This document shows, piece after piece, positions 8,233-51,215 of a DNA stretch of 64,000 bases. Every line of letters starts with the position of its first letter. Positions within the stretch are counted from its first letter, which is position 1. This DNA comes from Vulcanimicrobiota bacterium (lineage in GTDB: Bacteria > Vulcanimicrobiota > Vulcanimicrobiia > Vulcanimicrobiales > Vulcanimicrobiaceae). The DNA is taken from assembly GCA_963723515.1 (NCBI GenBank), contig CAVRQT010000003.1, positions 96,001 through 160,000 of the forward strand, read 5' to 3'. Made by a program: the position numbers and the translations under genes. A model generated the notes under the pieces. That model ran no database searches, was not told where the DNA came from, and worked only from the letters and a program-made list of their open reading frames with translations.

Positions 8233-8239
8233 TATGATA
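8233..8239. promoter_or_regulatory. Candidate overlapping bidirectional -10 element (TATGAT on +, TATCAT on -)
   Basis: Lies in the 18-bp gap between divergent manA (GTG 8225) and folK-mptA (ATG 8244). Confidence 0.5.
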
Positions 8240-8243
8240 CCAA

Positions 8244-28016: not shown

Positions 28017-30644
28017 ATGGCATCGAACGTACGTTCGTTCATGGCTGACGTCTTCGGAACGCTGCACCCGATCGTGGCGGGCTGGTGCCGCGAGCACTTG
28101 GTTGAGCCCACGATGCCGCAGCGAGAGGCGCTGCCTCTGGGCGTCAAACTGCGCACCTTTCTGCTCTCATCTCCAACGGGCACCGGCAAGACCTTAGCCG
28201 CCTTTCTTCCTTTAATGAGCCGCTTAGCGGAACGCCGCGACGCCGATGAGTTGCTGCCGCGGACCTACGGCCTCTACGTCTCTCCTCTCCGGGCGCTCAG
28301 TTATGACGTCGAGCACAATCTGCGCGTGCCGTTGCGCGAAATGGGGTTGCTCGAGCGGCCCAATTCGGAGCGCGCCAAGCTCCGAAGGGGCCGCATCCGC
28401 GAATCAGTGGTCCGCACGGCGGTTCGAACGAGCGACACGCCGCTGGAAGAACGCCGCCTCATGCTCAGACGGCCTCCGCATCTGTTGCTGACGACGCCGG
28501 AATCGCTTGCGGTCATGCTGGCGATGGACTCCTATCGTAAGGCCCTTCGATTTGTTGAAACCGTGGTGGTTGATGAGGTACATGCGCTCGGCGGCAATAA
28601 GCGCGGCGCGCAACTGAGCCTGCTCTTAGAGTCGCTTGAGGAGTTGGTTGCCGCACCGTTCAATCGCATCGGGCTCTCCGCGACTGCCAGCCCGCTCGAA
28701 CGCATCGCCGAATTCTTGGCCGGCGTCGGACGCGCATGTGAGATCGTTGACGCTCGCGGTTTGCGTTCGGTTCAGGTGCGTGTCGATGCGCCCTTCGAAG
28801 GTGCAATGGCGCCGCTCGCAACGGTTGCGCGCGCCGCTTCTGATCTTACGCGCGAGGTCCGCTCCGCGCTCGTCTTCACGAACGTTCGCAGTCAAGCGGA
28901 GCTGATCGGCCACGAGATGGCGCAGCTCGAGGAGGTGCCCGAGCACGTTGAAATCGCCGGCGACGTTCCTCGGCGTCGCGAGGGAACGCGCATCGGCGTC
29001 CATCATAGTGCGCTCGAACGGAACGTCCGCCATCGGATCGAGGCCGCGTTGCGCGACGGAAAGTTGCACACCGTCGTCTGCAGTTCGAGCTTAGAACTGG
29101 GGGTCGACATCGGCTTCATGGATCGCGTCATCATCGTTGGCGGAGCGCGCGGCATTACGGCGACGCTGCAGCGTATTGGACGATCGGGGCACCGCCCGAA
29201 CGCAATCGCGGATGGTGTCGTGATCGCTCAAGATCGCGATGATATCATTGAAGCGGCGGCGACCAAACGGTGCATTGCCGACGGCACGATCGAAGCGATT
29301 GAAATACCCGCTGCACCGCTCGACGTGCTCGCGCAATGGCTCGTCGGAAGCGTCGTACCTCGCCGTCGAGCGCAGGTGAACGATCTGTTGCGAATCGCTC
29401 GCCGAGCGTATCCGTTCCGCGAACTTGAAGAATCGGATCTGCGCGCTTGCGCGCGGTATCTCTCCGGCCAAGGCGTCGGCTCCGAGCGGGCGCACGTGCG
29501 GCGCATCGGCTATGACGGGCATGCGCTCTATGGACTTGGACGCGATGTGTCAGCAGCATTCTTTGAAAATGTCGGAACGATTCCGGACGAGGCGCAGACC
29601 GTCGTCCGCGCACGCGAGGGCACCGACATCGGCCGTGTCGAGGAAGCGTTTCGGGATCAACTGCACGTCGGTGATGTCTTGCTGCTCGCCGGGCGAACGT
29701 TTGAAATCAAGGAAGTCCGTCGAGGGGGAGTTGTCGTTGAACCGGTCTCCGCGAAGCCGACCGTCCCGCAGTGGAGCTCGCATCTGCGCGGTATTTCGAA
29801 GCCGCTGGCGCTTGAAATCGATCGCCTTCGCAGCGGTGTAGCGCAGCGTTTAACGAGCACCTCTGCGGCTCGCGAGTGGTTGCAGCGCCGATACGGCTTG
29901 CGGGAATGGGAAGCGCGCCACGTCGTTGGATACCTCGCGCAGCAAGCCGCGATCTCTGCGATTCCGCAGCTGCAAGAGCCGATCGTCGAGATCTATCGGA
30001 TGAGCGGCCGCCAAACCGCCGTCTTTCACACCGGCGCCGGGCGCCGGATCAACGAAACGCTCGGGCGCGCTGTCGGCGCACGGCTCTTCCGATTTGCCCG
30101 GACCAATACGCAGCTGACAACCGACGACGGCGGCTTCATGCTGACCTTACCGCGCGGCAAAACGATTCCGGACGCCGTCTGGGCGTCGATGCTGCACGTG
30201 GAGCATTTCGAGCGCGATCTGCTCGAAGGTCTGCAATCGTCGCATCTGATCAAGACGAACTTCCGCTACGTTGCAAACACCGGACTCTTAGTGCTGCGGC
30301 GTGCCGGTGGTCGAGCGCTGCGGCGCCGCGCGCTCTCATGGAATGCGGCCGAAATTCTGGGGCGCGTGAAGAACGCCGATCCCGATTTCGTCTTGTTGCG
30401 GGAAACCATCCGCACCGTCACTCGTGATCTGCTCGATGCGCCCGGCGCGCTCGAATATCTCAATGCGCTCAAAGGTGAGCCGCGCGTTCTGCATCCGCCG
30501 GCTGCCTCGCCGTTTACATTCGGGATCGTCACGTCGAGCTTCGGCGATTCGATCGTCTTGGAGGAGCGGACGACGATGGTGGAAGCGCTTCACGAACGCG
30601 TGCTAGCCCTTCGGCCCCGCTCAGGACAGGCCTTGGCGCAATGA
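28017..30644 (+). CDS. lhr: Lhr-core SF2 helicase
   Basis: SPTGTGKTLAAF, YVSPLRAL, TTPESL, VDEVH, GLSAT, HHSAL, SSLELGVDIG, QRIGRSGH, GTIPD, P.WSS. Confidence 0.93.
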   Translation: MASNVRSFMADVFGTLHPIVAGWCREHLVEPTMPQREALPLGVKLRTFLLSSPTGTGKTLAAFLPLMSRLAERRDADELLPRTYGLYVSPLRALSYDVEHNLRVPLREMGLLERPNSERAKLRRGRIRESVVRTAVRTSDTPLEERRLMLRRPPHLLLTTPESLAVMLAMDSYRKALRFVETVVVDEVHALGGNKRGAQLSLLLESLEELVAAPFNRIGLSATASPLERIAEFLAGVGRACEIVDARGLRSVQVRVDAPFEGAMAPLATVARAASDLTREVRSALVFTNVRSQAELIGHEMAQLEEVPEHVEIAGDVPRRREGTRIGVHHSALERNVRHRIEAALRDGKLHTVVCSSSLELGVDIGFMDRVIIVGGARGITATLQRIGRSGHRPNAIADGVVIAQDRDDIIEAAATKRCIADGTIEAIEIPAAPLDVLAQWLVGSVVPRRRAQVNDLLRIARRAYPFRELEESDLRACARYLSGQGVGSERAHVRRIGYDGHALYGLGRDVSAAFFENVGTIPDEAQTVVRAREGTDIGRVEEAFRDQLHVGDVLLLAGRTFEIKEVRRGGVVVEPVSAKPTVPQWSSHLRGISKPLALEIDRLRSGVAQRLTSTSAAREWLQRRYGLREWEARHVVGYLAQQAAISAIPQLQEPIVEIYRMSGRQTAVFHTGAGRRINETLGRAVGARLFRFARTNTQLTTDDGGFMLTLPRGKTIPDAVWASMLHVEHFERDLLEGLQSSHLIKTNFRYVANTGLLVLRRAGGRALRRRALSWNAAEILGRVKNADPDFVLLRETIRTVTRDLLDAPGALEYLNALKGEPRVLHPPAASPFTFGIVTSSFGDSIVLEERTTMVEALHERVLALRPRSGQALAQ
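30607..30631 (+). repeat. Degenerate REP-like unit inside the 3' end of lhr
   Basis: CCCTTCGGCCCCGCTCAGGACAGGC resembles the 24-bp unit (CTTCG..GCTCAG..CAGGC). Confidence 0.5.
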
Positions 30645-31399
30645 CGGCGTCGCAGCAGCTCCAACAGCATCAACTTTTCGCCGGCGTCGCAGCCCTTAGC
30701 AGCGGCATGCTGTGGTTTGAGGCCACACGCACCCTGGTTGGCGCCGACGTGCATCTCGGCTACGAGGAGGTAATCGGCGGAGCGCTGCCCCTGTGGAGCA
30801 CGACGCCATCGATCGATGCGCTATGCGACGCCGCGAGGCAGTTGCAAGCGCAGCACGTCGTGCTTTTAGGCGACGTTATTCACGGCGTTGAGATGAGCGA
30901 CGGTGCCAGACGGCGCATTACGCGCGCGCTGCGAACGCTCCGGTCGCGCGCGCACTTGCAGATCATCGCCGGGAACCACGAAGGAAGATCGCGCGGCGTC
31001 GCCGTTCTCGGAGAAACGTACGAACGGCTGGAAAGCAACGGCTGGGTGCTGATGCACGGCGACCGTCCGACGAACGAGAATCGCGCGGTCATCGGCCATC
31101 TTCACCCGAGCATTCACTTGGGCGGCGGCCAATCGGTACCCGTGTTCTTGGCATCACCGCAACTGATCGTCGTGCCGGCGATGACACCGTATTCGATCGG
31201 CCTCGACGTCCGCTCCGATGATTGTGCTGCCTCACTTGCGATGTGGCGCCTGCGCCCCAGTGATTTTCAGGTTATCGCCTCGGTGCCATCGGGTCTGTTT
31301 GCATTGGGAAGTTTGGCGGCGCTGCGTTCCGCGCAGCATCGGTCGGATGGTGCATCCGGGCGAGGATTTCATCGAAAATTTCTGCAGCCGGATCGCTAG
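30641..31399 (+). CDS. Lhr-associated metallophosphoesterase (MPE/PdeM-like endonuclease)
   Basis: ADVHLG, LLGDVIH, AGNHE, MHGD, GHLHP; ATGA overlap with lhr. Confidence 0.85.
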   Translation: MTASQQLQQHQLFAGVAALSSGMLWFEATRTLVGADVHLGYEEVIGGALPLWSTTPSIDALCDAARQLQAQHVVLLGDVIHGVEMSDGARRRITRALRTLRSRAHLQIIAGNHEGRSRGVAVLGETYERLESNGWVLMHGDRPTNENRAVIGHLHPSIHLGGGQSVPVFLASPQLIVVPAMTPYSIGLDVRSDDCAASLAMWRLRPSDFQVIASVPSGLFALGSLAALRSAQHRSDGASGRGFHRKFLQPDR

Positions 31400-32025: not shown

Positions 32026-33670
32026 ATGCAACGAATAGCTGTGGTTGGAGCAGGGACGATGGGCGCGGGCATCGCGCTGACCGCGGCGATCGCCGGCTTC
32101 GACGTCGATCTTGTGGAGATCGACGCGGCGATCCGCGAGCGCGCAGGCGAGCGCTTGAAGCGCGACTCGCAACGCCTCGGCCGCTCCGATGCGCTGTCGC
32201 GCATTCAGATGTGGGGCTCGATCGCCGAGCTTCGTGCGGTCGAGCTGGCGATCGAGGCGGTTCCTGAAAATCTCGCTCTCAAGCAGCAGGTGTTCACACA
32301 ACTCGAGCAACGCTTAGGCGATCGCGCGATTCTCGCGACAAATACGTCGTCGCTCAGCGTTACCGAAATCGGCGACGCACTTGCCGATCCCGGCCGGTTG
32401 ATCGGCCTGCATTTCTTCAATCCGGCGGCCGTGATGAAGCTCGTCGAAGTTGTTAAGACGAATCGCAATGACGAGACCGTTGTAGAGATCGGCCGCGCAT
32501 TTGTGCAGTCGCTCGGCAAGACCGCAGTACTTACCGCCGATACACCGGGCTTCATCGTTAATCGCGTCGCACGCCCGTACTATCTTCAAGCGTTGCGTGC
32601 GTTGGATGCCGGGCCGGCCGAGATCGCGGATCTCGATCTCTTGGCGCGCGGCGCCGGCTTTCGCATGGGCCCGTTCGAATTGATGGATCTGATCGGCTTA
32701 GACGTCAATCTCGCGACGACGGAATCGATATACGAGCGAACGGAAGCGGCGCGCTTTGGGCCGGTGCCGCGTCAGCAGAAGATGGTCGCGGAGAAGAAGC
32801 TAGGTCGAAAGACCGGGCGAGGGTTTCTACAGCGTACGAAAGCGATCGGGGTAACGCGATCGGCGCCAATTACGGCGCCTGAGCCGCCGGCTCGTAATGA
32901 AGATGAAATGATTGTCGTCCTCGGCTTCGGCGACAATCGCGGAGACGATTGCTTCGTACGTTGCAGCAGACGTATGCAAACGTTCAGCAGATCCAGACCG
33001 ACATTGGGCCCGATGATGCATTTCGACGGACCTTGACGCTGAGCCGACGATCGTCTTCGATATCGGTGACGGCGTCTCAGATCGCATCAGCGGCGCTGGC
33101 CGAGATCGAAAACCTTATTTCGGATGATGCGGTTATCTTCTTTGATGCCTATGCGACGCCGATGCGAAGCATTGCCAAGCGCTTGAAGCACCCCGAGATG
33201 GTTGTCGGATACGGCATCGTTGGATCGTTGGAACGACAAGCCGTCGTCGAAATCGTTGATGCGGACGCAACGGATGATGATGCGCTGGCGCTTGCCGAAG
33301 AAATTTTCGCTGCGCTCGGCAAGCAGCACGATGCTCGTGGCGAGTTCCAGCGACTGTTTTTGGGGCGCGTTATCGGTTCGATTGTCAGCGAAGCAGTATA
33401 TGCGGTACAGGACGGCGTCGCTGCGCGTGATGACATCGATCTGGCGATGCAACTCGGCACGAACTATCCAATTGGCCCGATCTCGTGGGGCACAGAGATC
33501 GGCGCGTGAGCGCATCGCGCGAATGCTCGACGCAATTGGCGAATGCCGAAGGAAAGGAATTCGGGCCGGCCCGCGCGCTTGTGGGCGATGGATGCGCAGA
33601 GCGGAGCGGTGCGAGCAGATGGCCGAAGACAAATCGAGGTCAGCACCATGCGTACGGCACGGAGTTCTAA
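32026..33670 (+). CDS. paaH: 3-hydroxyacyl-CoA dehydrogenase (PaaH-type, two-domain), multiple frameshifts at 32830-33600
   Basis: VVGAGTMGAGIA, TNTSSLS, GLHFFNPA, GFIVNRVARPYY, MGPFELMDLIG; second domain IDLAMQLGTNYP.GP; end approximate. Confidence 0.82.
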
Positions 33671-33680
33671 CGGCCATAAC

Positions 33681-34871
33681 ATGAGAGACGTTGTCATCGT
33701 CGATGCGGTTCGCACGCCGATCGGGCGGTATGGCGGCGCGTTGGCAGGGGCGCGCCCCGATGATTTGGCGGCGACCGTCGTTAAGGCGCTTGTTGAGCGC
33801 ACCGGTGTCGATCCCGCAGCGATCGAAGATGTCTTCTTCGGCGCTGCGAACCAAAGTGGTGAAGATAACCGCAACGTTGGCCGGATGGCGGCGATCCTTG
33901 CAGGTTTGCCGTTAGATGTCGCGGGGGCGACGTTCAATCGGTTGTGCGGCAGCAGCCTGCAAGCGATCAACTCAGCCGCGCAAGCCATTGCATGGGGCGA
34001 TGGTGACGTCATCATCGCGGGCGGGGTCGAATCGATGACGCGCGCGCCGTTTGTACAACTGAAGTCGGAGCGCGCATTCGAACGTTCACCCCAAGTGTTT
34101 GATACGACGATCGGGTGGCGGATGATCAATCGCTCCATGCCCCACGAATATACAATCGCGCTCGGCGCAACGGCTGAGAACGTTGCCGAGCGCTATAAGA
34201 TCTCTCGTGAAGAGCAAGATCGATTCGCCTTCGAGTCGCAGCGTAAGACGAAGGCGGCCGTTGAGAGGGGCTGCTTCGATGATGAGTTGGTTCCCGTTAC
34301 GGTTGCACATGGAAAGCAGACAAGCGAAGTTGTCGCCGACGAACATCCACGGCCGCAGACGTCGCTCGAAGATTTGGCGCGACTGAAACCGGCTTTTAAA
34401 GAAGGCGGCACGGTGACCGCCGGAAATTCATCGGGGATCAACGATGGCGCGGCGGCGATCTTGCTGTGTGAAGCGCAAGCCGCAAAGCAATTTGGTTTTC
34501 GGCCGCTTGCCCGCATCGTCGCATCCGGCGTGGCCGGCGTTGACCCGCGCTTTATGGGCTTAGGACCGATTCCGGCGACGAAGAAGGCGTTACAGCGGGC
34601 TGGACTGCGGATGGAAGACGTCGATCTGGTTGAGATCAACGAAGCTTTTGCCTCGCAGTCGATCGCATGTCTGCGCGACCTAGAGATCGATCCCGCGAAG
34701 GCGAATCCGAACGGCGGCGCGATTGCGTTGGGACATCCGCTTGGAGCAAGCGGCGCGCGGATCATGACGACGCTCGTGCATGAGCTCCGCCGCCAAAACC
34801 TGCGCTACGGCGTGGCGACGATGTGCGTCGGAGTCGGGCAAGGAATAACGACAGTCATTGAAAGGTTGTAG
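33681..34871 (+). CDS. paaJ: 3-oxoadipyl-CoA thiolase (PaaJ/PcaF-type)
   Basis: ANQSGEDNRNVGRM, NRLCGS, DTTIGWR, NEAFA, GHPLGASG, CVGVGQG. Confidence 0.9.
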   Translation: MRDVVIVDAVRTPIGRYGGALAGARPDDLAATVVKALVERTGVDPAAIEDVFFGAANQSGEDNRNVGRMAAILAGLPLDVAGATFNRLCGSSLQAINSAAQAIAWGDGDVIIAGGVESMTRAPFVQLKSERAFERSPQVFDTTIGWRMINRSMPHEYTIALGATAENVAERYKISREEQDRFAFESQRKTKAAVERGCFDDELVPVTVAHGKQTSEVVADEHPRPQTSLEDLARLKPAFKEGGTVTAGNSSGINDGAAAILLCEAQAAKQFGFRPLARIVASGVAGVDPRFMGLGPIPATKKALQRAGLRMEDVDLVEINEAFASQSIACLRDLEIDPAKANPNGGAIALGHPLGASGARIMTTLVHELRRQNLRYGVATMCVGVGQGITTVIERL

Positions 34872-34874
34872 AAG

Positions 34875-36350
34875 ATAACAAAGACACAACTGCTCATTGC
34901 CGGCGATTGGCGCGACGCCGCCGAGGGCGCCTCGTACGTCGATCGCAATCCGGCGACGAGCGAAGAGCTTGCGCAGGTCGCGAGCGCCTCTGCTGCCGAT
35001 GTCGATCGCGCGGTGCAAGCCGCGCGTAAGGCCTTGGAGAGCGGGAAGTGGGCCACAATGGCCGCCTCGCGTCGCGCGAAGATCGTCTACAAGGTCGCGC
35101 AGTTGATCGCGGAGCGCGCAGAGGAGCTGGCTCTGCTTGAAGTTCGCGACAACGGCAAGACGATCGCCACGGCCAAAGGCGAGCTGAGCGCGATTATCGA
35201 CACGTTCGAATTTTACGCCGGTGCCGCGACCAAGAACTACGGTTCGACGTTACCTGCGCCTGTGCCGAACTACGTAGCGCACACGCTTGTCGAGCCGGTC
35301 GGCGTCGTAGGAGCAATCGTGCCGTGGAATTTTCCGTTGCTGCTTGCGAGTTGGAAGGTTGCACCGGCGCTTGCAACCGGCTGCACCGTCATCCTCAAGC
35401 CGGCATCCGCTACGCCGTTGACCGCACTCGAGCTTGGAAAAATTGGGCTTGAGGCCGGCCTCCCCGAAGGCGTCCTCAACATCCTTACCGGCCCCGGATC
35501 GGAACTGGGGCAAGCGCTCGTGGAGCATCCGGGGATCGACAAGATTGCGTTCACCGGAAGCACGTCGGTCGGCAAACGCGTCGCAAGCACGGCGGCGCAA
35601 ACGCTCAAACGAGTGACCCTCGAGCTCGGCGGAAAATCGCCGTCGCTTGTCTTCGACGATGCGGATGTTGATGCGGCGATCAACGGCGCGCTCTACGGTA
35701 TCTTCTACAACGCCGGACAAACATGCGAAGCACGTTCACGGGTTCTCGTTCACGAAGCAATCTACGATCAGTTCGTAAGTCGCTTCGGTGAGCAGGCGCA
35801 GAAGTTACGCATCGGCGACCCCGAGGATGCAAAGACGCAGATCGGCGCGATCACGGTCGAAGAGCAGCTCGAAAAGATTGCGGCCTACTGCGTATCCGGT
35901 GAAAAGGAAGGCGCGAAACGTCTGTTTGGCGGTCGTCGAGCCGCCGTCGGCAACGGGCAAGAGCGTGGAATGTTTTGGAGCGCTACGGCCTTTGAAGCCG
36001 AGCCCAACCATCGCATCGCGCAAGAGGAGATCTTTGGGCCGGTCGTCGTTTTCTTGAAATTCAAAACCGAGAGTGAGGCAATCGAGCTCGCGAACGATAG
36101 TGAATATGGCCTTGCCGCAAGCATCTGGTCAAAAGACATCAGCCGCGTCTATCGCGTTACGCGGGCGTTGCGCAGCGGCACCGTCGCAATCAACACGCCA
36201 TACGCGGTCTTTCCGGGCGTCCCGTTCGGCGGCTACAAGCGCTCCGGATACGGGCGGGAACTAGGACTAGAGACGATGCGCCTCTATTCTGAAACGAAGA
36301 GCGTTATAACGTATGTGGGCGAGAAACCCATAAATGCATTCGGGGTATAA
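34875..36350 (+). CDS. Aldehyde dehydrogenase; apparent non-canonical ATA start
   Basis: In-frame QLLIAGDW...NPAT upstream of the called GTG 35013; VPWNFP, FTGST, LELGGKSP, GQTCEA, EEIFGPV, PFGGYK.SG.GRE. Confidence 0.9.
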   Translation: MTKTQLLIAGDWRDAAEGASYVDRNPATSEELAQVASASAADVDRAVQAARKALESGKWATMAASRRAKIVYKVAQLIAERAEELALLEVRDNGKTIATAKGELSAIIDTFEFYAGAATKNYGSTLPAPVPNYVAHTLVEPVGVVGAIVPWNFPLLLASWKVAPALATGCTVILKPASATPLTALELGKIGLEAGLPEGVLNILTGPGSELGQALVEHPGIDKIAFTGSTSVGKRVASTAAQTLKRVTLELGGKSPSLVFDDADVDAAINGALYGIFYNAGQTCEARSRVLVHEAIYDQFVSRFGEQAQKLRIGDPEDAKTQIGAITVEEQLEKIAAYCVSGEKEGAKRLFGGRRAAVGNGQERGMFWSATAFEAEPNHRIAQEEIFGPVVVFLKFKTESEAIELANDSEYGLAASIWSKDISRVYRVTRALRSGTVAINTPYAVFPGVPFGGYKRSGYGRELGLETMRLYSETKSVITYVGEKPINAFGV

Positions 36351-36677
36351 ACGCACATCGAACAGCTAAAAATCGGACAGACCTACGAAACGACGTACGG
36401 CACGCTTTGGAAGGAAGGCACGTATTTTCCGCGCGGTACGAAGGTCGAGGTCGTCGGCGTTCATCTCGAGCAAGGATTTTGCGTGCGCTTTCCCGCGGAA
36501 GTTGATGGCGAGCCGCTCGAGACGTGGGAAGATTGGGCCGAATCCGATTTTCTCGCCGAAGAAGGCACCGTTGAACCGACGCAAACGATCTCTGCCTCGG
36601 TGCTCGCTGAAGCGCGCGAGGTGCTCAGCGATGCGGAAGACGGCTGTCACCTGCACCTTCACGAAGGCGAAGAGTAG
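36351..36677 (+). CDS. Small acidic hypothetical protein (about 108 aa); apparent ACG start
   Basis: Frame open from 36351 (THIEQLKIGQTYETTYG...) to TAG 36677; C-terminal CHLHLHEGEE. Confidence 0.6.
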   Translation, partial: THIEQLKIGQTYETTYGTLWKEGTYFPRGTKVEVVGVHLEQGFCVRFPAEVDGEPLETWEDWAESDFLAEEGTVEPTQTISASVLAEAREVLSDAEDGCHLHLHEGEE

Positions 36678-36689
36678 CGGTCGCGCGTC

Positions 36690-37511
36690 TTACAGCGCGC
36701 TCTTGAAGAACCGTTCGGCCTTCTGAGAAATCAAACCGTAATATTGCCGGAAGATCGCGGAGGCGACGCTGCCGGGCCAATGCGCCGGAAGCAACGCGCT
36801 GGGTAGTCCGGGATCGACATATAAGAATTTGCGAAAGTCCTGAACGAGTTGCAAGCGTTCGATGAATGCGTCGCGCTCGCTGAGCGCGCGAGCGGAGCGT
36901 TCTTTTTCAATCCGCGGTTCGTAGAATGCAACGAACTCGCGATACGCGGCGGCGATCGCCTCGACGTTCCAGCAGCGTTCCAGCAGATCGCGGTCGCCCA
37001 TGGGCCCCTCGTAGTCGGCGATGAAGAGTTGCACGTTGCCGGAGAGAGCGGGCTGCCTTGCGAGCTCTTGAATTTCGGCGCGAACGTCGCGCGGCGAGAT
37101 CCAAACCGCCGGCGCGAGCGGCGCAAAGCCGAGCAGCGCCAACTCTTTGCGCAAACGGTCCCGCAGTTGCCGCTGCTTTTCCGCAATGCCGTAAACGACG
37201 ATCCGCCAGCGTCCATCCCATTCACCTGCCGGTTCATAAATGCGCGGCGCAATATGTGCGATGCGGTTTGTGCCGTGTTCCGTAAGCGCGTATGAAGCGC
37301 GCCCGCCATCTCTTACGCGCGCGAGCCAGCCCTGTGCGGCCATCCGTGAAAGCGCTTGGCGCACTGCCTGTTCGCTGATGCCTAGCTCCGCCATCAGCCT
37401 CACCAAGCTGCCGACCGGCAGTCTGCCGTTGCACATCCGGCCGAAATCACCGTATAGCGTGAAGATGAGCGATGCGGCTCGAGCCGCCTTGACAGCCGTG
37501 GCGTTGCGCAT
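36690..37511 (-). CDS. paaX: PaaX-family transcriptional repressor
   Basis: SLIFTLYGDF, VRQALSRM..QGWL, WDGRW, LGFA, DPGLP.ALLP.HWPG. Confidence 0.9.
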   Translation of the reverse strand: MRNATAVKAARAASLIFTLYGDFGRMCNGRLPVGSLVRLMAELGISEQAVRQALSRMAAQGWLARVRDGGRASYALTEHGTNRIAHIAPRIYEPAGEWDGRWRIVVYGIAEKQRQLRDRLRKELALLGFAPLAPAVWISPRDVRAEIQELARQPALSGNVQLFIADYEGPMGDRDLLERCWNVEAIAAAYREFVAFYEPRIEKERSARALSERDAFIERLQLVQDFRKFLYVDPGLPSALLPAHWPGSVASAIFRQYYGLISQKAERFFKSAL

Positions 37512-37560
37512 GCTAGTATAACGTTATTCTCACGACATCACAAAATTCCGTCACAGCGAC
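37512..37560. promoter_or_regulatory. Divergent paaX/boxB control region with ATAACGTTAT palindrome
   Basis: Palindrome 37518-37527 overlapping a minus-strand TATACT 3 nt before the paaX ATG; three TCAC repeats follow. Confidence 0.5.
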
Positions 37561-37579
37561 GAGGAGACACTTCCGAACG

Positions 37580-38701
37580 ATGACGCGCATAGCGACCTTC
37601 GATGACTGGGTCGATCTGCTGCGGCAATGGCAGCACGATATCGGGCTCGACCAGGAACTGGTCGAGCGCTACATGCCCGGCTACGAATTTGAAGCCAAAT
37701 ACGGCGAATTGCCGACAGACGAGATCACCTTCGGTGAGTTTGCCGGCGAGCGCAAGTGGGAGAAAGTCCTGGAGATTCCCGATCAGCGCATGCGCGATGC
37801 CGTCTTGAACATGGTCGTCTATCAGGGCGATACGGAGTTCGCTTCCAACGAGCAGCAGCGTTTTCTCGTCAACAACGCGCCCAGCGAGTACGATCTTGCT
37901 TCGCTCGTTCGCATCATGGTCGAAGAGACGCGCCATGGCTATCAGATGTGCCATCTGATGATCAAGCACTTTGGCGAAGACGGCAAAATAGAAGCGCAAA
38001 AGATGCTCGAACGGCGTGCTTACGGCAAGAAGAACCGCTTGCTGAATGCCTTCAATGACGACGTGACGCATTGGCTCGATTTCTTCGCGTATACGAATTT
38101 CATGGATCGCGACGGAAAATTCCAGTTGACGATGCTCTCGCACTCCGGCTTTGCGCCGTTGGCGCAATCGATGGGCCCCATGCTTCGCGAAGAGTCCTTT
38201 CACATGGGAACGGGAGTCTCGGGTTTGAAGCGGATCGCGCAAGCCGGCGTCATTCCGGTTGAGCTGCAGCAGAAGTACTACAACAAGTGGCTCTCGGGTT
38301 CACTCGACCTCTTTGGAACGGACCACTCGAGTTCCGCGCAATGGGCGTATGCCTGGGGCATTAAGGGGCGCGTCGATGAGGACAAGACGCAAGACCAGGT
38401 CGACCGCGAGCATTTGAATGAACGCGCCCGCGCGCAGTTCTACGACGAGGCCTCCAAGACGGTCGAGAGGGTCAATAGCGTCAATCCGTCGCCGACGAAG
38501 TTGTACATTCCGGATTTGCGCTTCAATCGTGAAATCGGGGAATTCGCCGGTCAGCGTTGGAGCGTTGATGGACGTCGCTTAACCGAAGAAGAGTGGCAAG
38601 CATACGCGCCGACGGTCCTTCCGAACGTACAAGATGAAGCGGCGCTCGCAGAACTTTTCAAGAGTCCGAATTGGATCGCACCGAAAGGAAAGGCAGCATG
38701 A
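37580..38701 (+). CDS. boxB: BoxB-like di-iron aromatic-acyl-CoA epoxidase (short form, 373 aa)
   Basis: GAGGAG RBS; QGDTEFAS.EQQR, APS.YD, EETRH, DRDGKFQL, LREESFH (two ExxH), DLFG. Confidence 0.8.
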   Translation: MTRIATFDDWVDLLRQWQHDIGLDQELVERYMPGYEFEAKYGELPTDEITFGEFAGERKWEKVLEIPDQRMRDAVLNMVVYQGDTEFASNEQQRFLVNNAPSEYDLASLVRIMVEETRHGYQMCHLMIKHFGEDGKIEAQKMLERRAYGKKNRLLNAFNDDVTHWLDFFAYTNFMDRDGKFQLTMLSHSGFAPLAQSMGPMLREESFHMGTGVSGLKRIAQAGVIPVELQQKYYNKWLSGSLDLFGTDHSSSAQWAYAWGIKGRVDEDKTQDQVDREHLNERARAQFYDEASKTVERVNSVNPSPTKLYIPDLRFNREIGEFAGQRWSVDGRRLTEEEWQAYAPTVLPNVQDEAALAELFKSPNWIAPKGKAA

Positions 38702-39594
38702 CCGTTCGACACGCAGCTCCCTTCGACAAGCTCAGGTGACAGCTCGGCAAGATCGGCGCGTAAGGAGACACCGTTCGGACGCGAGGGCCGGCCGCTCGAC
38801 GGCAAGCGTCTCATTAACTCTAGCCGCGAAGGGCACATCGCGCTGCATCGAGATGAACGACCCGCCCGCCAATACGTACACGCACGAGATGATGCGCCAG
38901 CTCGATGACGCGATTTTGGATGCGCGCTTCGACGATGAGGTCGAAGTGATCGTCGTGACGGGATCCGGTGAGAAGTTCTTCTCCGCCGGCGCCAACATCG
39001 GCATGCTTAACTCGCGTCACGCCACAGTTCAAGTACATGTTTTGCCTGCATGCCAACGAGACGCTCTGCCGATTCGAGCAGACGCCCAAACTCGTTATCG
39101 CGGCGCTCAACGGCCACACGGTCGGCGGCGGCCTCGAGATTGCAATGGCGTGCGACATTCGCATCGCGCGCAAGGACGCTGGCAAGATCGGTCTGCCCGA
39201 AGTCGCGCTCGGCGTGCTGCCTGGCACCGGCGGAACGCAACGCTTGGCGCGCCTTGTCGGAAAATCCAAAGCGATCGAGCTGATGGCGTCGGGCCGCACC
39301 TTTAGCTTCGAACAGGCGCTCGATTTTGGAATCGTCAACGAGATCTTCGAAGGCGATGCGCAGTCGTTTCGCGAGCAAGTGCTGAGCTACGCGAAGCAGT
39401 TCGCATCGCCCAACAAGGCGCCGATGGCGGTCGGACATATCAAGCGGAGCGTGCAAACGGGCATTGAACTGCCGCTCAACGATGCACTGGCGTTGGAACG
39501 CGAGCTGCAATCGCTGCTCTTCAAGAGCGAAGATGCAAAAGAAGGGCTCGCGGCCTATAACGAAAAGCGCGTTGCGCGCTTCAAAAACCGCTGA
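38698..39594 (+). CDS. Enoyl-CoA hydratase/crotonase family protein, frameshifted near 38705, 38845 and 39010
   Basis: ATGA overlap with boxB; DPPAN, FFSAGANI, GGGLEIAMACDIR, GLPEVALGVLPGTGGTQR, DAKEG..A..EKR. Confidence 0.85.
38719..38740 (+). repeat. REP-like unit inside the 5' end of the crotonase gene
   Basis: CCCTTCGACAAGCTCAGG shares the CTTCGACAAGCTCAG core. Confidence 0.8.
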
Positions 39595-39645: not shown

Positions 39646-41387
39646 ATGATCAATTTGAGCGCAATCATTGGCACGGCACTCTTAGCGGCCCAACTTGCCG
39701 CGGCGCCGGCGCCGCCGCTCCGTCCGTCAAGCGACGCGACGCTCAATGCCTTGGCGCAAGCCTATTTCGCTTACGCGTGGCGCGATAATCCGGTGCAGGC
39801 GACGAACGCCGGCGTGCATACGTACGACACGGCGCTTGGTTCGTACAGCGCGGCGGCGTATCGCGCGCGCATTGCGGCGGCCAAATCGTATCTGCGCGCG
39901 CTGCACGCGATCGACCGGCGTAAACTTTCTACCGAAGCCGGATACGACTATGCGATCTTTGAAAGCCGCCTCCGCGCGACGCTGCTCTCGCTTCGAAACG
40001 GAGCAGAGTTGGCGGCATCATCCAAGCCAATACACCGGCGCCGCCTCAAATGCGATCTTCTCGCTGATCAAGCGTGACTTTGCGCCGCTCGACGTGCGCC
40101 TGGGCGACGCAATCGCGCGAGAACGTCAAATTCCGAAGTTACTGGCAGACGGTGCGGCAAACATCACCACGGTCGATCCGACGACCGCGCAAATCGAAGC
40201 CGCCGACGTCAAAGGCGCGATCACGTTCTTCTCGACGATCGTTCCGCAAGCGTTTCACGAGCGTTAGCGATCCGCTGTTGCAAGCGCAGTTCAAGACGGC
40301 CAATGCGGCGACCATTGCGGCGATTGAGCGGTTCAGCGATCGAATGATGGCGGGACCATTCGCGCATCCCTCCGGCACTTATGCCATCGGAGCGAAAGAC
40401 TTTGCCGCCCGCCTAGCGTTGCAAGAGCTGACGCCGATTCCGCTCACTGAGTACGAGCGCGTCGGAATGCGCGCGTTGGACCAAACGAAGGCGCAATTTG
40501 TCGCGATCGCGCAGCAGATCGATCCAGCGAAGACGCCGCAGCAGGTTGCGGATGAAATCGGCGTCGACCATCCAACCGCGGATCAACTGCTTCCTGCGGC
40601 GCAGCGCGATCTTGACGATCTGCGCGCCTTTGTGATCCAACACCACATCGTGACGCTGCCGCCCGATTACAACATCAAGGTCGTTCCGACGCCGGTCTTC
40701 GCACGGCAGACCACCTTCGCATCGATGGATGCGCCGGGGCCATTAGAGACGGTGGCGACGCAAGCATACTATAACGTGACGCCCGTTGAACCGGATTGGT
40801 CGCCGCAGCGTGCCGAATCGCACCTAACGTTTTTCAACAATTACTACCGTCCGATCGTCGGCGCGCATGAGGTGATGCCCGGTCACTACGTCAATTTTAC
40901 GCTGAACCGGCACGAAAAGCTCTCGCTGATTCGCCGGCTCTTCGCAAGCCCGTCATATGCCGAAGGGTGGGCGCATTACGACGAGCAGATGATGGTCGAT
41001 GAAGGGTGGGGCAACGGCAATCCTAAGGTTCGTTTAGCGCAGCTTGAGGGCGCGCTCTTGCGAGAAGCCCGCTACATCGTTGGTTTGCGCGAGCATACGC
41101 AAGGCATGACCGTCGACCAAGCGACGCAATTCTTCATCGACAACGCCTTCGTCGGGCAAGAGCCGGCGCATCGCGAAGCGTTGCGCGGGACGCAGGATCC
41201 GCTTTATGGCTACTACACGCTCGGCAAACTCGAGCTGCTCAAACTGCGCGACGATTATCGTCGCAAGATGGGGGCCGCATATTCGCTGCAGCGCTTCCAT
41301 GACGCATTTCTTGCGCACGGCGATCCGCCGATCGCGATCACGCGAAAGGAATTGCTCGGCAAATCTGACGACGGCCGTTTGCTCTAG
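39646..41387 (+). CDS. DUF885-family secreted protein, frameshifted near 39995 and 40255
   Basis: Signal peptide; P..AT..GVH.YD, HEVMPGHY, YAEGWAHY.E, YTLGKL.LLKLR, FHDAFL. Confidence 0.85.
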
Positions 41388-41407: not shown

Positions 41408-42139
41408 CTATGAAACGGACGTCGCGGTGAATTTCGGGCACAGCAGCGTGTCGATCGGATCGGTAGCGATCGAATCGAGATAGCCCTCGGGAATATTCAA
41501 TTCGAATGCCGACGGCCAAGGCGTCGCAGGCACCGGAAACTTGACCGGGATCCTGACATAGTGATACTCGCCGGTCGCCGTACGTAACTTCATAACGACG
41601 GAAAGCGATTCGATCGCCCTATCGGGCAGTTGCGGCATGAATTGCGCATAGTATGCGTCTTCATCTTTTTCGATCGTCGTTTGCAGCGGGATCGGATTTG
41701 AGATCGGCTGATTGCACGGCGCGTTTCGATCGAGTGCGACGAACTCGGGTTGCGCGTACGAGAATGCTGCCGGTGTGGTACCTGTCAAGAGCAACGGCAC
41801 TCCGCCAGGAGACGGGCCGCTTGCAAGGGTTTCTTTGATGTTCCGCAGTTGGTCCGGGATGAAGAAGACGAAATCAGAAGCGCTGCAGCCGTATTTCGGA
41901 ACGCTGACTTGCAGACGGTAGAGGCCGCGAGGCACATCAAACTCCACGACCGGCTCCTCGCCGTAGCCCCGATCCGCCGAATAGGTACGGTCGACTTGCG
42001 GCCGGCCGATTCGATCGCTCACGCGTACGTGCATCGCAAAGGCGGTTTGCGCCCTCAAGCGTGAAATCGGGCCACAGAGGCCAACGTGAAGCGCGACATG
42101 CGTTAGACCGTTCATCGAACCGCGCTCTCCGTTCGCCAT
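41408..42139 (-). CDS. Hypothetical protein
   Basis: Long beta-rich ORF immediately downstream of the ligase; start uncertain. Confidence 0.6.
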   Translation of the reverse strand: MANGERGSMNGLTHVALHVGLCGPISRLRAQTAFAMHVRVSDRIGRPQVDRTYSADRGYGEEPVVEFDVPRGLYRLQVSVPKYGCSASDFVFFIPDQLRNIKETLASGPSPGGVPLLLTGTTPAAFSYAQPEFVALDRNAPCNQPISNPIPLQTTIEKDEDAYYAQFMPQLPDRAIESLSVVMKLRTATGEYHYVRIPVKFPVPATPWPSAFELNIPEGYLDSIATDPIDTLLCPKFTATSVS

Positions 42140-42155
42140 CTCTAGGACGAACGCT

Positions 42156-43856
42156 TCACGATGCGGACGGTGACGCGATGCCTTCACGAGCGAGCATGGC
42201 GGTGTAGATCTCACGCACGCTTTCCAGCGTGTCGATCTCGTCAGGCGGTTTGTCATCACGGATCCGCACGATCCGGGGGAAACGCAGCGCAAAGCCGCTG
42301 TCATGCAAATCGCTTTCTTGAATGATGTCGAAGGCCACTTCCAAGACGACTCGCGGCTCAACGGGTATCGCACGTCGCCATCCGCGGCTCCGTGCTGGCG
42401 CTTCCGCAACCGTGTGAGACAAGAACCACTCCGTCAGGCGGGCGATCTCCGCATCCGTGAGACCTGAATATGCCTTTCCGATCGTCAGCAAGCGGCCGTC
42501 CTCTCCGCGAACCGCAAAGGTATAGTCGGAGAGCACGTTTGCGCGTTTCCCATGGCCCCACTCAACTCCAACGACGACAACGTCGAGCGTTGAGAGCTCG
42601 CGCTTGAGTTTTAGCCACCACTTTCCGCGCCGCCCGGGAAGGTACGGCGAATCGGCGCGCTTGAGCATCAACCCTTCATTGCCCCGTTGCCGTGCCGCCT
42701 CAAAATGCTCGTGCAGCTTCTCGGCGCCGGCCGCGCTCTCCCAAAGTGACCACGACGCGAGCTGCACATGGTCGCCGCCAACGGCGATCTCGGAGAGAAT
42801 CTCCCGGCGCATCGAAAGCGGCTCGTCGAGCAAGAAGCGTTCGTTCCGTGCGAGCAAGTCGAAACACGCGAACGTCACCGGTACCTCGGCAAGCAACCCC
42901 TGCGAGACGTCTTTGCGCTGCAATCTGGCTTGCAAGTAGCGGAACGGCAACACACGACCGTCTTTTTGTGCGATGATCTCGCCATCGAAAATCATCGAAC
43001 CGGAAATCTGCCGCGCGTCAGCGACGATCTCCGGATACGAATGCGCGACGTCGTTGAGCGTACGCGAGAAGATTCTGACGATATCGCCATGCTTGTGCAA
43101 CTGCGCGCGAATCCCGTCAAACTTATCTTCGAGGATCCATGGTGCTCCGCGCAGCTCCTTATAGGATGAGCCGTAAAGAATCGGGGACGCCAGCATGAAT
43201 CCGATCGGCGAGCCATATGCGACTGCGATTTCGTTAAGACGATGATGGCGCGCCGCGAGTGCGACCTCACCGATATCACCGCTCGCCATCACGGCACGCC
43301 GCACGTCGCGGCTTTCGCAATCGAAGGCTTTCGCAAGAGCGTCGATGACGAGACCCTCTTTGAGCCCGATGCGCAACTCGCCGGTCATAATCTTGATCGC
43401 GTATTTGGCTTCAAGTTGGCAGCGGCACGCGCGCAAGATGCGTTCGCAGAGCAACTGTCGTTTTCGTGAAGCGGCTTTTCCGGACGCGGCCGCGATTTGA
43501 TCCAAAATCACCTTTAAGGACGCGGGGTGGAGCGTTTCGCTAAAGAGTTCAGGCGTATCGCTCGGTTTGATGAGCGGCGCGAGAGCCGCACCGAGGTCGC
43601 CGTGGCGGCGATAGCCGTGAGCAAGTTCCGCCTCACCGACGTTCCACGCCGCACGAGCGGCCGCTACGATCGTGCTGCCGCCAAGCGAGAGCGCCCGCTG
43701 ATCGCGCGCTGCAAATGGATTGCCGGTGAAGAAGCGCGTTGCCGCGGCGAGATCGAGATCGTCAAGCTCGCGCAGGTAGCTTGCGAGCAAATCGATCTTC
43801 GCCAGCTTCGACGACGTCGCTGCGATCGCGTCAGCGGTCTGCGCGAATCGCAACAT
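42156..43856 (-). CDS. ATP-dependent DNA ligase
   Basis: EDKFDGIR (KxDG), DGEI, FDLL, EGLMLK, WLKLK, ALRFPRI.RIRDDK. Confidence 0.95.
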   Translation of the reverse strand: MLRFAQTADAIAATSSKLAKIDLLASYLRELDDLDLAAATRFFTGNPFAARDQRALSLGGSTIVAAARAAWNVGEAELAHGYRRHGDLGAALAPLIKPSDTPELFSETLHPASLKVILDQIAAASGKAASRKRQLLCERILRACRCQLEAKYAIKIMTGELRIGLKEGLVIDALAKAFDCESRDVRRAVMASGDIGEVALAARHHRLNEIAVAYGSPIGFMLASPILYGSSYKELRGAPWILEDKFDGIRAQLHKHGDIVRIFSRTLNDVAHSYPEIVADARQISGSMIFDGEIIAQKDGRVLPFRYLQARLQRKDVSQGLLAEVPVTFACFDLLARNERFLLDEPLSMRREILSEIAVGGDHVQLASWSLWESAAGAEKLHEHFEAARQRGNEGLMLKRADSPYLPGRRGKWWLKLKRELSTLDVVVVGVEWGHGKRANVLSDYTFAVRGEDGRLLTIGKAYSGLTDAEIARLTEWFLSHTVAEAPARSRGWRRAIPVEPRVVLEVAFDIIQESDLHDSGFALRFPRIVRIRDDKPPDEIDTLESVREIYTAMLAREGIASPSAS

Positions 43857-45714: not shown

Positions 45715-46683
45715 ATGGCACGAATCTATGAAAATATCACGGACACGTTCGGCAATACACCGCTCGTCAAGATTCCGCGGCTGACTCGCGCGCTTCAGGC
45801 GACCGTGCTGGTCAAGATGGAGTCGTTCAATCCGGCGGGTTCCGTCAAAGACCGTATCGGCGTTTCGATGATCGAGGCGGCTGAACGCGAGGGCCGGCTG
45901 CGCCCGAATACGACGATCGTCGAACCGACGAGCGGCAACACCGGGATCGCGCTCGCATTTGTGGCCGCCGCGAAAGGGTATCCATGCATTCTGACGATGC
46001 CCGATACGATGACGATCGAGCGGCGCAACCTGCTGCGCGCCTACGGTGCGCAAGTCGTGCTGACGCCGGGCGCTGAAGGCATGCCCGGCGCGATTCGCCG
46101 CGCACGTGAAATCGTCGCCAGCGATCCGGCGCGTTTCCACATGCCGGGGCAGTTTGAGAATCCCGCAAATCCCGAAATTCACCGCCGAACGACTGCTGAA
46201 GAAATTTGGCGCGACACGGACGGAAATATCGACGTGCTCGTCGCGGCGGTCGGAACCGGCGGCACGATCACCGGCGTGGCGGAAGTCATCCGCTCGCGGC
46301 GACCATCGTTTCAAGCGATCGCCGTCGAACCCGCCGGATCGCCCGTGCTTTCCGGAGGTGCGCCCGGCCCACACAAGATTCAAGGAACCGGCGCCGGCTT
46401 TGTGCCGCAAGTGCTCAACACGGAGATCTATGCCGAAGTCATCCGCGTCAGCGATCAAGACGCGATCGAAACGGCGCGTCGTGCGGCGCGCGAGGAAGGC
46501 ATGCTCGTCGGCATTTCGTCGGGTGCGAATCTGTGGGCTGCGCTCGAGGTCGCAAAGCGCGAGAAGATGCGAGGAAAAACGATCGTCACGATCGCGTGTG
46601 ATACGGGCGAACGGTATCTCTCGAATCCGCTCTTCGCCGATCAGGCGCCGCCCGTTCACGAAGCGACCCTGAGCCTGCCCTGA
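45715..46683 (+). CDS. cysK: Cysteine synthase A
   Basis: [48 protein letters not shown]. Confidence 0.95.
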
Positions 46684-46718
46684 GCTGGTCGAAAGCCTGC
46701 ACTGAGCTTGTCGAAGTG
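46673..46718 (-). repeat. Two REP-like units spanning the cysK stop and asparaginase start region
   Basis: 46695-46718 is the exact reverse complement of 5627-5650; 46673-46694 is a degenerate copy containing the cysK TGA. Confidence 0.9.
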
Positions 46719-46721
46719 GGT

Positions 46722-47742
46722 GTGAATGATGCGTTCGTCGAGATAACGCGCGGCCCGATCGTCGAATCGGCTCACGCCATTTGGGCGTGCGCCGTCGATC
46801 GAACCGGCACGCCGATCGTGCAAATGGGCGATATCGAAACGCCGGTCTACCTTCGCTCAAGCGCGAAACCGTTTATTGCAGCCGCAGCGGTCCGCGCCGG
46901 CGTCGTGCAACGCTTTGGCCTAGAACCACGCGAAGTTGCCGTCATGGCAGCGTCGCATTCCGGCGAGCCTTTCCACATCGATGCGGTGCGATCGATCTTG
47001 CGTAAGATCGGCTTGCCGGAATCCGCCTTACAATGCGGACCGCATCCGCCGTACAATGCGGCGGCGGCAAAGGAACTGGCCGATCGCGGTGAGCCGTTTA
47101 CGGCGATTCACAACAATTGCTCGGGCAAACATGCGGGCATCTTAGCGCTGTGCGTCCTTCTGAATTGCGATCCGGCGACATACATGCAGCCGGCGAACCC
47201 AGCGGAGCAGGAGATACTCGCCTTCTGCGCACGCATGACGGGCGATACCGTCGCAGATTTTCCCATCGGCGTAGACGGCTGCGGCATTCCGGTGTTCGCC
47301 GTTCCGGCACTGCACGGGGCGCGGGCGTTCATGCGATTGGCCACCCTGGAAGGCATCGATGCAGAGGATGCTCGGGCACTGGGTGCCGTGCGTGAAGCGA
47401 TGCTCGACTATCCTTTATATATCGCCGGAACGGATGAGTTTGATTCGGTCTTAATGGCGCAGTCGAATCGCACGATTGCCTGCAAAGGCGGAGCAGAAGC
47501 GGTTCACGGCGACGCCGTCATCTCCGAAGGGATCGGCTTGTTCGTCAAAGTGCGCGATGGAGGGCGTCGTGCCGTCGCGCCCACCGTTCTTGCGATCTTG
47601 GACGAACTCGAAGCGATCGCGCTGAACAGCGCATCCGGCGTTGGCGGATTTCGCGGCGCCGCCGATTCGAAATCGCGCCGGGCGAACCGTCGGGGAAACC
47701 CGCGTGAAGCGGGCGATGATTACGAAGACGCGAAAACCGTAA
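46722..47742 (+). CDS. L-asparaginase II (Rhizobium etli-type), frameshifted near 47625
   Basis: RG.IVES.H, RSSAKPF, ASHSGE, NNCSGKHAG, DGCG.P, KGGAE; shifted frame gives PIRNRAGRTVGE...TAA 47742. Confidence 0.85.
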
Positions 47743-47747
47743 GCACC

Positions 47748-50700: not shown

Positions 50701-51215
50701 TCGATGCCGATGATGCGACGCGCGAGGTCGCGCGCTTTGCATTCTCACGCCAACCCGGGGGTGAGCATCTTTGTCTCGCTGACTACGTGCGGCCGCGTGA
50801 GAACGGCCAGCCCATCGATGTTGTCGCGCTGCAGATCGTGACTGTCGGTTCGGAGGCGACCAAGCGCATCGACGCCTTGCAAGCGCGCGGCGATTACAGC
50901 GAGTCGTATTTTCTGCACGGTTTCTGCGTGCAATCCGCTGAGGCGCTCGCCGAACATACGCATCGGCGTATCCGAACTGAATTGGGATTGCCCGACGATC
51001 GCGGCAAGCGCTACTCTTGGGGCTACGGCGCATGCCCCGATCTCTCGCAGCATGAAACCGTTTTCAGATTGCTCGATGCGTCAAAGGCAATGGGCGTGCA
51101 GCTCACGCCGGCGTACCAAATCGTACCGGAGCAGTCGACCGCGGCGATCGTCATCCATCATCCGAAGGCGGCATATTTTAACGCCGCCGCCGTACGCGAG
51201 CTGACAACGGCGTAA
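47748..51215 (+). CDS. metH: Cobalamin-dependent methionine synthase, frameshifted near 49470 and 50400-50460
   Basis: FDGAMGT, GLNCSTGP, GGCCGTTPDHI, GERIN, GDVHDIGKNLV, RYSWGYGACPDL, PEQST. Confidence 0.93.

Follow-up and report, generated by a model that had tools for sequence, protein, structure and literature searches.

A compact relative of the BoxB oxygenase, with a conserved crotonase partner, in a candidate BoxA- and BoxC-independent aryl-CoA gene cluster of Vulcanimicrobiota

Can an aromatic ring be epoxidised as its coenzyme A (CoA) thioester by a single-chain oxygenase that is encoded without a dedicated reductase? To our knowledge, aerobic CoA-dependent ring epoxidation is known from two enzyme systems only, BoxAB and PaaABCDE. 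The question of a third arises from a gene cluster at positions 32026-39594 of a 64,000-nucleotide stretch of the genome of a Vulcanimicrobiota bacterium (hereafter, the window; G000:C3:96001-160000), where a compact oxygenase resembling BoxB is followed by a single-domain crotonase, here denoted ECH-X, and is transcribed divergently from a PaaX-family repressor gene. The genome amounts to 2.11 Mb in 4 contigs and is 88% complete, a value that bounds all absences from it reported below; the nearest homologs of the window proteins belong to Eremiobacterota (Vulcanimicrobiota), in the family Baltobacteraceae and its relatives. We propose, with a probability of roughly 0.55, that the cluster encodes an aerobic aryl-CoA pathway of the box type that is independent of BoxA and BoxC and is controlled by the PaaX-family repressor.

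The first-pass annotation of this DNA, made from the letters alone, had recognised BoxB-type motifs in the 373-residue oxygenase, and these are indeed present, namely, QGDTE at residues 82-86, EETRH at 115-119, DRDGKFQL at 176-183 and EESFH at 204-208. All four are invariant or nearly so in alignments of the family, and we take the glutamate of QGDTE, the first ExxH, the aspartate of DRDGK and the second ExxH to be the diiron ligands of BoxB. The comparator throughout is the oxygenase part of the benzoyl-CoA 2,3-epoxidase BoxAB of Azoarcus/Aromatoleum evansii (PDB 3PER, 3PF7, 3PM5 and 3Q1G; family model TIGR03225). Against 3PER, the window protein has an E value of 5.6e-54, and the match spans residues 85-436 of the 481 in the chain; as estimated from the printed alignment, roughly 40% of the positions in the aligned core are identical. 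Its AlphaFold model (pLDDT 93) superposes on chain C of 3PM5 with a TMq of 0.90 and a TMt of 0.71, and TMq is 0.89-0.90 for the BoxB structures versus 0.51-0.54 for PaaA. Both the sequence and the predicted fold thus identify the oxygenase as a true relative of BoxB, as the first-pass annotation had held.

Kinship is not membership, however. The oxygenase scores 233.6 bits on TIGR03225, under half of the cut-off of 499.1, and 39.6 bits on the PaaA model TIGR02156, for which the cut-off is 280. In a quick maximum-likelihood tree of 52 rows, a phylogeny of the kind that the first-pass annotation had proposed, a clade (SH-aLRT 99) unites the long, canonical BoxB proteins and leaves out the short forms. 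Because the oxygenase falls outside the BoxB family by its score, by its placement in the tree and by the lack of BoxA and BoxC partners, it is classified here as a variant related to BoxB, not as a BoxB family member. The resemblance extends from the fold, the core and the four motifs to the organisation of the locus: as with BoxB, the oxygenase consists of one chain, no structural subunit resembling PaaC is encoded nearby, a crotonase-family gene follows that of the oxygenase, and an aldehyde dehydrogenase gene is linked. Unlike BoxB, the compact protein is about 100 residues shorter, lacking ~40 residues of BoxB at either end as well as two internal insertions, and the family is associated with regulators of the PaaX or TetR type, whereas canonical box clusters use BoxR.

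The small size, which the first-pass annotation had singled out as unusual, turned out to be normal for the family, and the cluster is not the one-off hybrid that was suspected but the Eremiobacterota version of a family seen in the genomes of at least 590 species. The family search gave 4753 matches, the best 120 of which are 364-394 residues long and 78-91% identical; 916 members were found at E <= 0.001 among 1.84 billion cluster representatives, and at least 590 loci were confirmed when the GTDB species were scanned with one genome each. Among the loci listed, the phyla are Eremiobacterota, Acidobacteriota, Planctomycetota, Zixibacteria, Eisenbacteria, Ignavibacteria and Armatimonadota. 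The suspicion that the system is under-described has held up, in that no paper on the short family was found in the literature searched, with subscription journals outside its coverage. A few larger Eremiobacterota genomes (G080, G119, G138 and G113) encode a second BoxB-like kind, 44-46% identical, with matches that span query residues ~32-279 and lie in open frames of 475-976 codons; it may represent an elongated version or a fusion.

The gene order that the first-pass annotation had read, paaH-thiolase-aldehyde dehydrogenase-small protein and then paaX divergent from the boxB-like gene and the crotonase gene, is borne out by Pfam, NCBIfam and tblastn matches:

32026-33509, plus strand: 3-hydroxyacyl-CoA dehydrogenase of the PaaH type, with the long PaaH architecture (Pfam 3HCDH_N and 3HCDH)
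33543-34871 (open reading frame), plus strand: 3-oxoadipyl-CoA thiolase of the PcaF/PaaJ type (NF006551, TIGR02430)
34872-36350, plus strand: NAD(P)-dependent aldehyde dehydrogenase of a generic, BADH/HpaE/StyD-like class (Pfam Aldedh, 543 bits)
36354-36677, plus strand: small acidic protein of ~107 residues with no family match (tblastn E 7e-53)
36690-37511, minus strand: PaaX-family repressor, divergent from the oxygenase gene (Pfam PaaX, PaaX_M and PaaX_C)
37489-37553, plus strand: promoter-like boxes and inverted repeat, the presumed PaaX operator (direct reading and alignment of relatives)
37580-38701, plus strand: compact BoxB-type diiron acyl-CoA oxygenase, 373 residues, intact (TIGR03225, 3PER match)
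~38741-39594, plus strand: single-domain crotonase ECH-X (Pfam ECH_1, tblastn)

Which of these genes belong together is indicated by the neighbourhoods of the oxygenase gene in other genomes, a comparison that the first-pass annotation had also suggested. Of the at least 590 loci, 80 were kept, and neighbours were counted in the 68 of these that span at least 9 kb (annotated 10 kb to either side): 43 close loci, in which the oxygenase is at least 64% identical (L027-L077, one with an Acidiferrales name), and 25 distant ones, with 55-59% identity (L078-L106). Protein clusters that lacked a family match and overlapped known genes were set aside as antisense shadow frames of high-GC loci. The counts are as follows:

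Crotonase: 59 of 68 loci; 41 of 43 close, 18 of 25 distant
PaaH-type dehydrogenase: 50 of 68 loci; 42 of 43 close, 8 of 25 distant
Aldehyde dehydrogenase: 38 of 68 loci; 33 of 43 close, 5 of 25 distant
Thiolase: 35 of 68 loci; 35 of 43 close, 0 of 25 distant
PaaX: 35 of 68 loci; 35 of 43 close, 0 of 25 distant

The crotonase is accordingly the partner of the oxygenase, present in all but 9 of the 68 loci, and a TetR regulator is encoded in 14 of the 25 distant ones. Moreover, of the 18 distant loci that carry any crotonase, 17 encode a counterpart 62-70% identical to the crotonase of the close relatives, whereas the other crotonases of those loci are ~30% identical to it, so that, between phyla, the conservation of ECH-X equals or exceeds that of the oxygenase. 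Judged by sequence, ECH-X is a single orthologous subfamily that crosses phyla as a conserved partner of the oxygenase. Intact orthologs consist of one ECH_1 domain in ~257-290 residues; their top model is the generic enoyl-CoA hydratase NF005803 (210 bits, cut-off 313), and they remain below the cut-offs of PaaG (136 bits versus 345) and of the alternative oxepin-CoA hydrolase model NF046063 (131.4 and 132.6 bits versus 300). The window crotonase displays both hydratase-type glutamate motifs, GGGLE and GLPE, the glutamates of which are presumably catalytic. ECH-X shares with BoxC and the oxepin-CoA hydrolases its membership of the crotonase superfamily and a gene position beside that of an epoxidase-type enzyme, and it would likewise leave the next step to a separate aldehyde dehydrogenase; unlike BoxC, a two-domain protein of ~550 residues, it has a single domain of ~260 residues and reaches 50 bits on TIGR03222, against a cut-off of 712.3, and its 131 bits on NF046063 likewise set it apart from that hydrolase.

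A distinct operon type is found in Acidobacteriota and their allies. In 14 of the 25 distant loci (L078, L083, L087, L093, L100 and L106, among others), a Mug/UDG-family protein of ~176 residues is encoded ~0.9 kb upstream of the short BoxB gene, between two crotonase genes, in the order TetR regulator, crotonase, in some cases aldehyde dehydrogenase, Mug/UDG protein, crotonase and BoxB. The protein scores 119 bits on the G/U mismatch glycosylase model NF007570 (cut-off 144), which places a DNA-glycosylase fold inside an acyl-CoA operon.

What the cluster lacks is as characteristic as what it contains. According to the first-pass annotation, the window has no BoxA or PaaE reductase, no PaaB, PaaC, PaaD or PaaZ, no two-domain BoxC and no CoA ligase, and the Pfam search of the 69 stop-to-stop frames kept agrees, with no AMP-ligase, BoxA/PaaE-type reductase, PaaB/C/D, MaoC/PaaZ or two-domain BoxC in the window. 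The proposed search for boxA and paaE in the whole genome likewise found neither, nor did it find boxC: the best match to BoxA (TIGR03224) scores 26.8 bits against a cut-off of 459.2, the best match to BoxC is the local crotonase at 50 bits, the sole match to PaaA is the BoxB-like gene itself at 40 bits, and PaaE, PaaK and PF00175 (FNR-type NAD_binding_1) have no match in the genome. Across 151 genomes of the phylum, BoxA exceeds its cut-off in none and the short BoxB is encoded in 72 (both counts include the unpublished genome G030, and 4 of the 72 matches are weaker, at 44-46% identity). No reductase or ferredoxin gene recurs beside the oxygenase in the 68 loci. A NuoE/NuoF-type reductase was considered as the electron donor and discarded, given that the one NuoF of the genome belongs to an ordinary complex I operon.

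A CoA ligase is missing from the window, but the genome has a candidate. A gene of the benzoate-CoA ligase family (C3:777250-778749; 367.7 bits, cut-off 375.25) lies ~650 kb from the cluster and is adjoined by acyl-CoA dehydrogenase and crotonase genes. Together, the crotonase (NF006107, 414 bits, exceeding the cut-off of 330), the dehydrogenase and the ligase family protein make up an operon-like set at G000:C3:777250-780800 (L107, 9238-12809, minus strand), possibly an activation module for an aromatic or alicyclic acid. Other lineages appear to differ in this respect. CoA-transferase subunits are encoded in 7-8 of the 68 loci, close and distant, and the adjacency of these genes suggests that, in those lineages, the acid is activated by CoA transfer rather than by a ligase. 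The two CoA-transferase genes (PF01144; weak matches of ~45 bits to the pcaI/pcaJ families) lie just downstream of the short BoxB gene, and the loci with the pair are L068, L069, L074, L076, L078, L082, L087 and L090. In 4-5 of the 25 distant loci, there is an Hcr-like pair of iron-sulfur and molybdenum protein genes. In two acidobacterial loci, HcrA, the alpha subunit of 4-hydroxybenzoyl-CoA reductase, exceeds its cut-off of 994.55 bits (1035.5 and 1006.3 bits), and both of these genes are located 2-3 kb from the short BoxB gene. The product of 4-hydroxybenzoyl-CoA reductase is benzoyl-CoA.

The regulator is a three-domain protein (PaaX, PaaX_M and PaaX_C) that scores 237.7 bits on TIGR02277, just under the cut-off of 264.55. 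A spacer of 68 nucleotides separates paaX from the oxygenase gene, and this spacer, together with the first bases of paaX, contains a TTGACA box at 37489-37494 and a TAGTAT box at 37514-37519, the latter, the -10 box, overlapped by an inverted repeat, TAACGT-N23-CCGTCA, at 37519-37553. The same layout of promoter and repeat is kept in an alignment of 20 upstream regions. A regular expression written for the repeat found a match in 20 of 26 regions, in 18 cases with a span of exactly 35 nucleotides, compared with a mean of 0.39 of 26 and a maximum of 3 in 200 shuffles; the match of the expression in the window itself is a chance site, and the 35-nucleotide site there was read by eye. A palindrome, AGTATAACG/CGTTATTCT, was dropped in favour of the conserved 6-N23-6 repeat, its AACGTT core being present in 0 of 25 relatives. 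The position of the presumed operator over the -10 box is what one would expect if PaaX bound there to repress the oxygenase operon. Two spaced 6-bp arms also constitute a likeness to the Paa system, since in E. coli, too, the PaaX operator is built from two arms in a similar layout.

This likeness to the PaaABC(D)E system (E. coli; PDB 3PW1) comprises the PaaX-family repressor, the lower-pathway genes of the PaaH and PaaJ/PcaF types and the shared oxygenase family PF05138. By contrast, neither PaaB, PaaC, PaaD or PaaE nor PaaK or PaaZ was found with the compact oxygenase, the PaaA score of which has been given above. The two fragments of paaH score 314 and 79 bits on NF006124 and 268 and 70 bits on TIGR02279, whereas the thiolase comes close to, but stays below, the cut-offs of both NF006551 (568.7 bits versus 605) and TIGR02430 (554.3 versus 597); the thiolase profiles start at residue 47 of the open reading frame, and its true start is probably near 33681. 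Every NCBIfam match of the aldehyde dehydrogenase is under its cut-off. Neither this gene nor that of the small protein has an ATG, GTG or TTG at the expected start, and an ortholog of the aldehyde dehydrogenase aligns from its residue 11 at 34884.

The small acidic protein is encoded in 37 of 51 close loci and in 0 of 29 distant ones, and in several loci its gene immediately precedes that of the oxygenase in the same orientation. Pfam gives no match at E values up to 10, save a chance one of 0.043 in 1 of 9 members, and a profile search of PDB sequences gives none. The AlphaFold model is poor (pLDDT 61.8), and Foldseek returned nothing at E <= 0.001, its weaker rows pointing to SH3-like barrels; in the Atlas, the closest clusters consist of hypothetical proteins of Vulcanimicrobiota. 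A 98-codon open reading frame on the minus strand (36366-36662) was rejected as a shadow of this small plus-strand gene. The features particular to the lineage of the window, then, are PaaX control with a defined operator, a lower pathway of paaH, thiolase and aldehyde dehydrogenase joined on, an orphan small protein, and a genome in which no dedicated reductase of the known kinds can be found.

Taken together, these genes would fit the following route. It builds on observed homology, predicted fold, iron-ligand motifs, gene linkage, absent partners and a conserved operator, whereas its substrate, products, electron donor and effector are inferred. An aromatic acid would first be joined to CoA by an enzyme encoded outside the cluster, for which the benzoate-CoA ligase family gene is the candidate in this genome, and in other lineages by the CoA-transferases beside the oxygenase. 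The compact diiron oxygenase, using O2 and two electrons from a donor not encoded nearby, would epoxidise and thereby de-aromatise the ring, most likely that of benzoyl-CoA or a close analogue. ECH-X would add water to the epoxide or its oxepin form, opening the ring to an aldehyde, and might also relieve product inhibition of the oxygenase. This parallel with BoxC is based on the co-purification of BoxC with BoxB and its relief of BoxB product inhibition, as described in a review (PMC4498308). The aldehyde dehydrogenase would then yield a dehydroadipyl-CoA-type acid, which PaaH and the PcaF-type thiolase would convert to succinyl-CoA and acetyl-CoA, and PaaX, bound to TAACGT-N23-CCGTCA over the -10 box, would be released by an aryl-CoA.

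Several observations weigh against this route. No electron donor was found in the genome, either as a PF00175 match or as a NuoF outside the complex I operon. ECH-X resembles an ordinary two-glutamate hydratase, with a generic enoyl-CoA hydratase as its top, below-cut-off model, and it is the only crotonase in the cluster, whereas in the box route the oxidation by aldehyde dehydrogenase must be followed by the action of an isomerase and a hydratase as well. The aldehyde dehydrogenase of the cluster belongs to a generic class. The regulator, just under the PaaX cut-off, is of a kind with phenylacetyl-CoA as its known effector and so points towards that substrate. Finally, paaH and ECH-X are frameshifted and rpoB and rpoC are intact, so that the cluster could be decaying.

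The frame breaks had escaped the first-pass annotation. Both paaH and the crotonase gene are present, but both are frameshifted, as tblastn and comparison with the same-genus genome G001 demonstrate. In paaH, at least one frameshift falls within 32931-33087: the Pfam domains of its product lie in two overlapping frames, and the intact ortholog of G007 gives tblastn segments in frames 1 and 3. The crotonase is spread over three frames (tblastn), with ECH_1 in two of these, and, relative to G001, carries one extra base at ~38846 and another at ~39015. A DUF885 gene directly 3' of it (39646-41387, plus strand) likewise occupies three frames, with extra bases at ~39993 and ~40261, and all three genes are in one frame in G001. 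At the DUF885 position, G001 and G013 have two tandem copies. If the paaH and ECH-X frameshifts were real, the pathway would be non-functional in this organism, whatever the family does elsewhere, and there is something to be said for such a remnant: at least 5 frame breaks affect three genes within 9.5 kb, compared with ~7.7 kb of unbroken rpoB and rpoC, the breaks are outside long homopolymers, and the genome is small (2.1 Mb). Nevertheless, we consider decay unlikely. All fragments are open and 76-87% identical to their orthologs, with no further signs of decay, and the four placeable breaks each amount to one extra base with respect to G001; five fresh frameshifts without other decay are hard to explain biologically, which makes assembly indels the likelier cause. 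Furthermore, FolE2 (GCHY-1; 8238-9732) and MetH (46602-50838) of the same window are each split over two overlapping frames, and the recurrence of this kind of break, already met in paaH, the crotonase and DUF885, hints at indel errors throughout the assembly. The oxygenase gene itself gives split matches in few-contig assemblies of the phylum (G007 and G096), and 88% completeness of a 4-contig assembly fits such errors. The frameshifts are, therefore, most likely artefacts of assembly. The window also has an asparaginase II gene that continues into the frame of MetH with no stop codon in between.

The nature of the substrate is a separate matter. The short BoxB could be an O2-dependent hydroxylase or desaturase of a non-aromatic acyl-CoA, dicarboxylic, alicyclic or branched, with ECH-X, PaaH and the thiolase as an ordinary module resembling beta-oxidation, into which the aldehyde dehydrogenase would feed an aldehyde precursor. 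The hydratase-like features of ECH-X, the generic aldehyde dehydrogenase, the position of the oxygenase outside the canonical BoxB clade at under half of the BoxB cut-off, and a locus with no reductase, BoxC or aromatic CoA ligase would all agree with this, as would the acyl-CoA dehydrogenase and crotonase genes that adjoin the unlinked ligase gene. Yet the core is ~40% identical to BoxB and the fold match includes the C-terminal part of BoxB, the PaaH- and PcaF-type enzymes are specific to adipyl-CoA-type intermediates, the regulator is of the PaaX family, and HcrA, with benzoyl-CoA as its product, adjoins the gene in acidobacterial loci, such that we regard a non-aromatic substrate as rather improbable. 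Less probable still is the same chemistry acting on phenylacetyl-CoA, with the oxygenase in place of PaaABCDE, ECH-X as an alternative, crotonase-type oxepin-CoA hydrolase and the aldehyde dehydrogenase acting like PacL. With neither PaaA nor PaaE found in the genome, no other phenylacetyl-CoA oxygenase would be present, and a single-domain crotonase with a separate aldehyde dehydrogenase can presumably replace PaaZ, as the existence of the NF046063 model implies. The ECH-X orthologs, however, fall far below the cut-offs of both NF046063 and PaaG, PaaK is unmatched in the genome, the oxygenase is far nearer to BoxB than to PaaA, and the other phyla combine the family with HcrA and TetR-type, not PaaX-type, regulators. 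The review cited above bears on both sides, describing release of PaaX by phenylacetyl-CoA and stating that BoxB does not accept phenylacetyl-CoA (PMC4498308). Between the two aromatic substrates, the HcrA neighbour, the benzoate-CoA ligase family gene, the lack of PaaK and the closer kinship to BoxB than to PaaA favour benzoyl-CoA or a close analogue.

Within the box-type reading that we prefer, a more radical version can be envisaged. Here, the oxygenase and ECH-X would form a self-contained, two-protein ring-cleaving unit with no dedicated reductase, the electrons coming from a general ferredoxin or, in an oxidase-type reaction, from the substrate itself. The ring would be opened by simple hydration without deformylation of the BoxC type, resulting in a formate-free route from benzoyl-CoA with a different carbon length, and the 107-residue acidic protein would be a new accessory or coupling subunit in the Baltobacterales-type lineage. 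We mention this version as a speculation that we doubt.

The genes flanking the cluster have a different character. At 28017-31399 (plus strand), an Lhr-type helicase (875 residues) and a PdeM-like phosphoesterase (TIGR04123, 97 bits, below the cut-off) are encoded, and at 41408-43856 (minus strand), an ATP-dependent DNA ligase (566 residues) and a 333-codon open reading frame without a family. These four resemble what we take to be the ligase-associated DNA damage response set, here parted by ~10 kb that hold a NUDIX gene, the aryl-CoA cluster and DUF885.

If the proposed pathway is real, the compact oxygenase would be a third form of ring epoxidase, operating without the partner proteins of BoxAB and PaaABCDE in hundreds of uncultured soil species. 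The turnover of aromatic acids and lignin-derived carbon would then have to be reread in soil metagenomes, where the genes are now tagged 'boxB' or 'PaaI' by similarity. The oxygenase would also offer a minimal, single-chain diiron epoxidase for mechanistic study, and the source of its electrons would become a well-defined question. The conserved ECH-X partner and the PaaX operator provide starting points for direct experiments.

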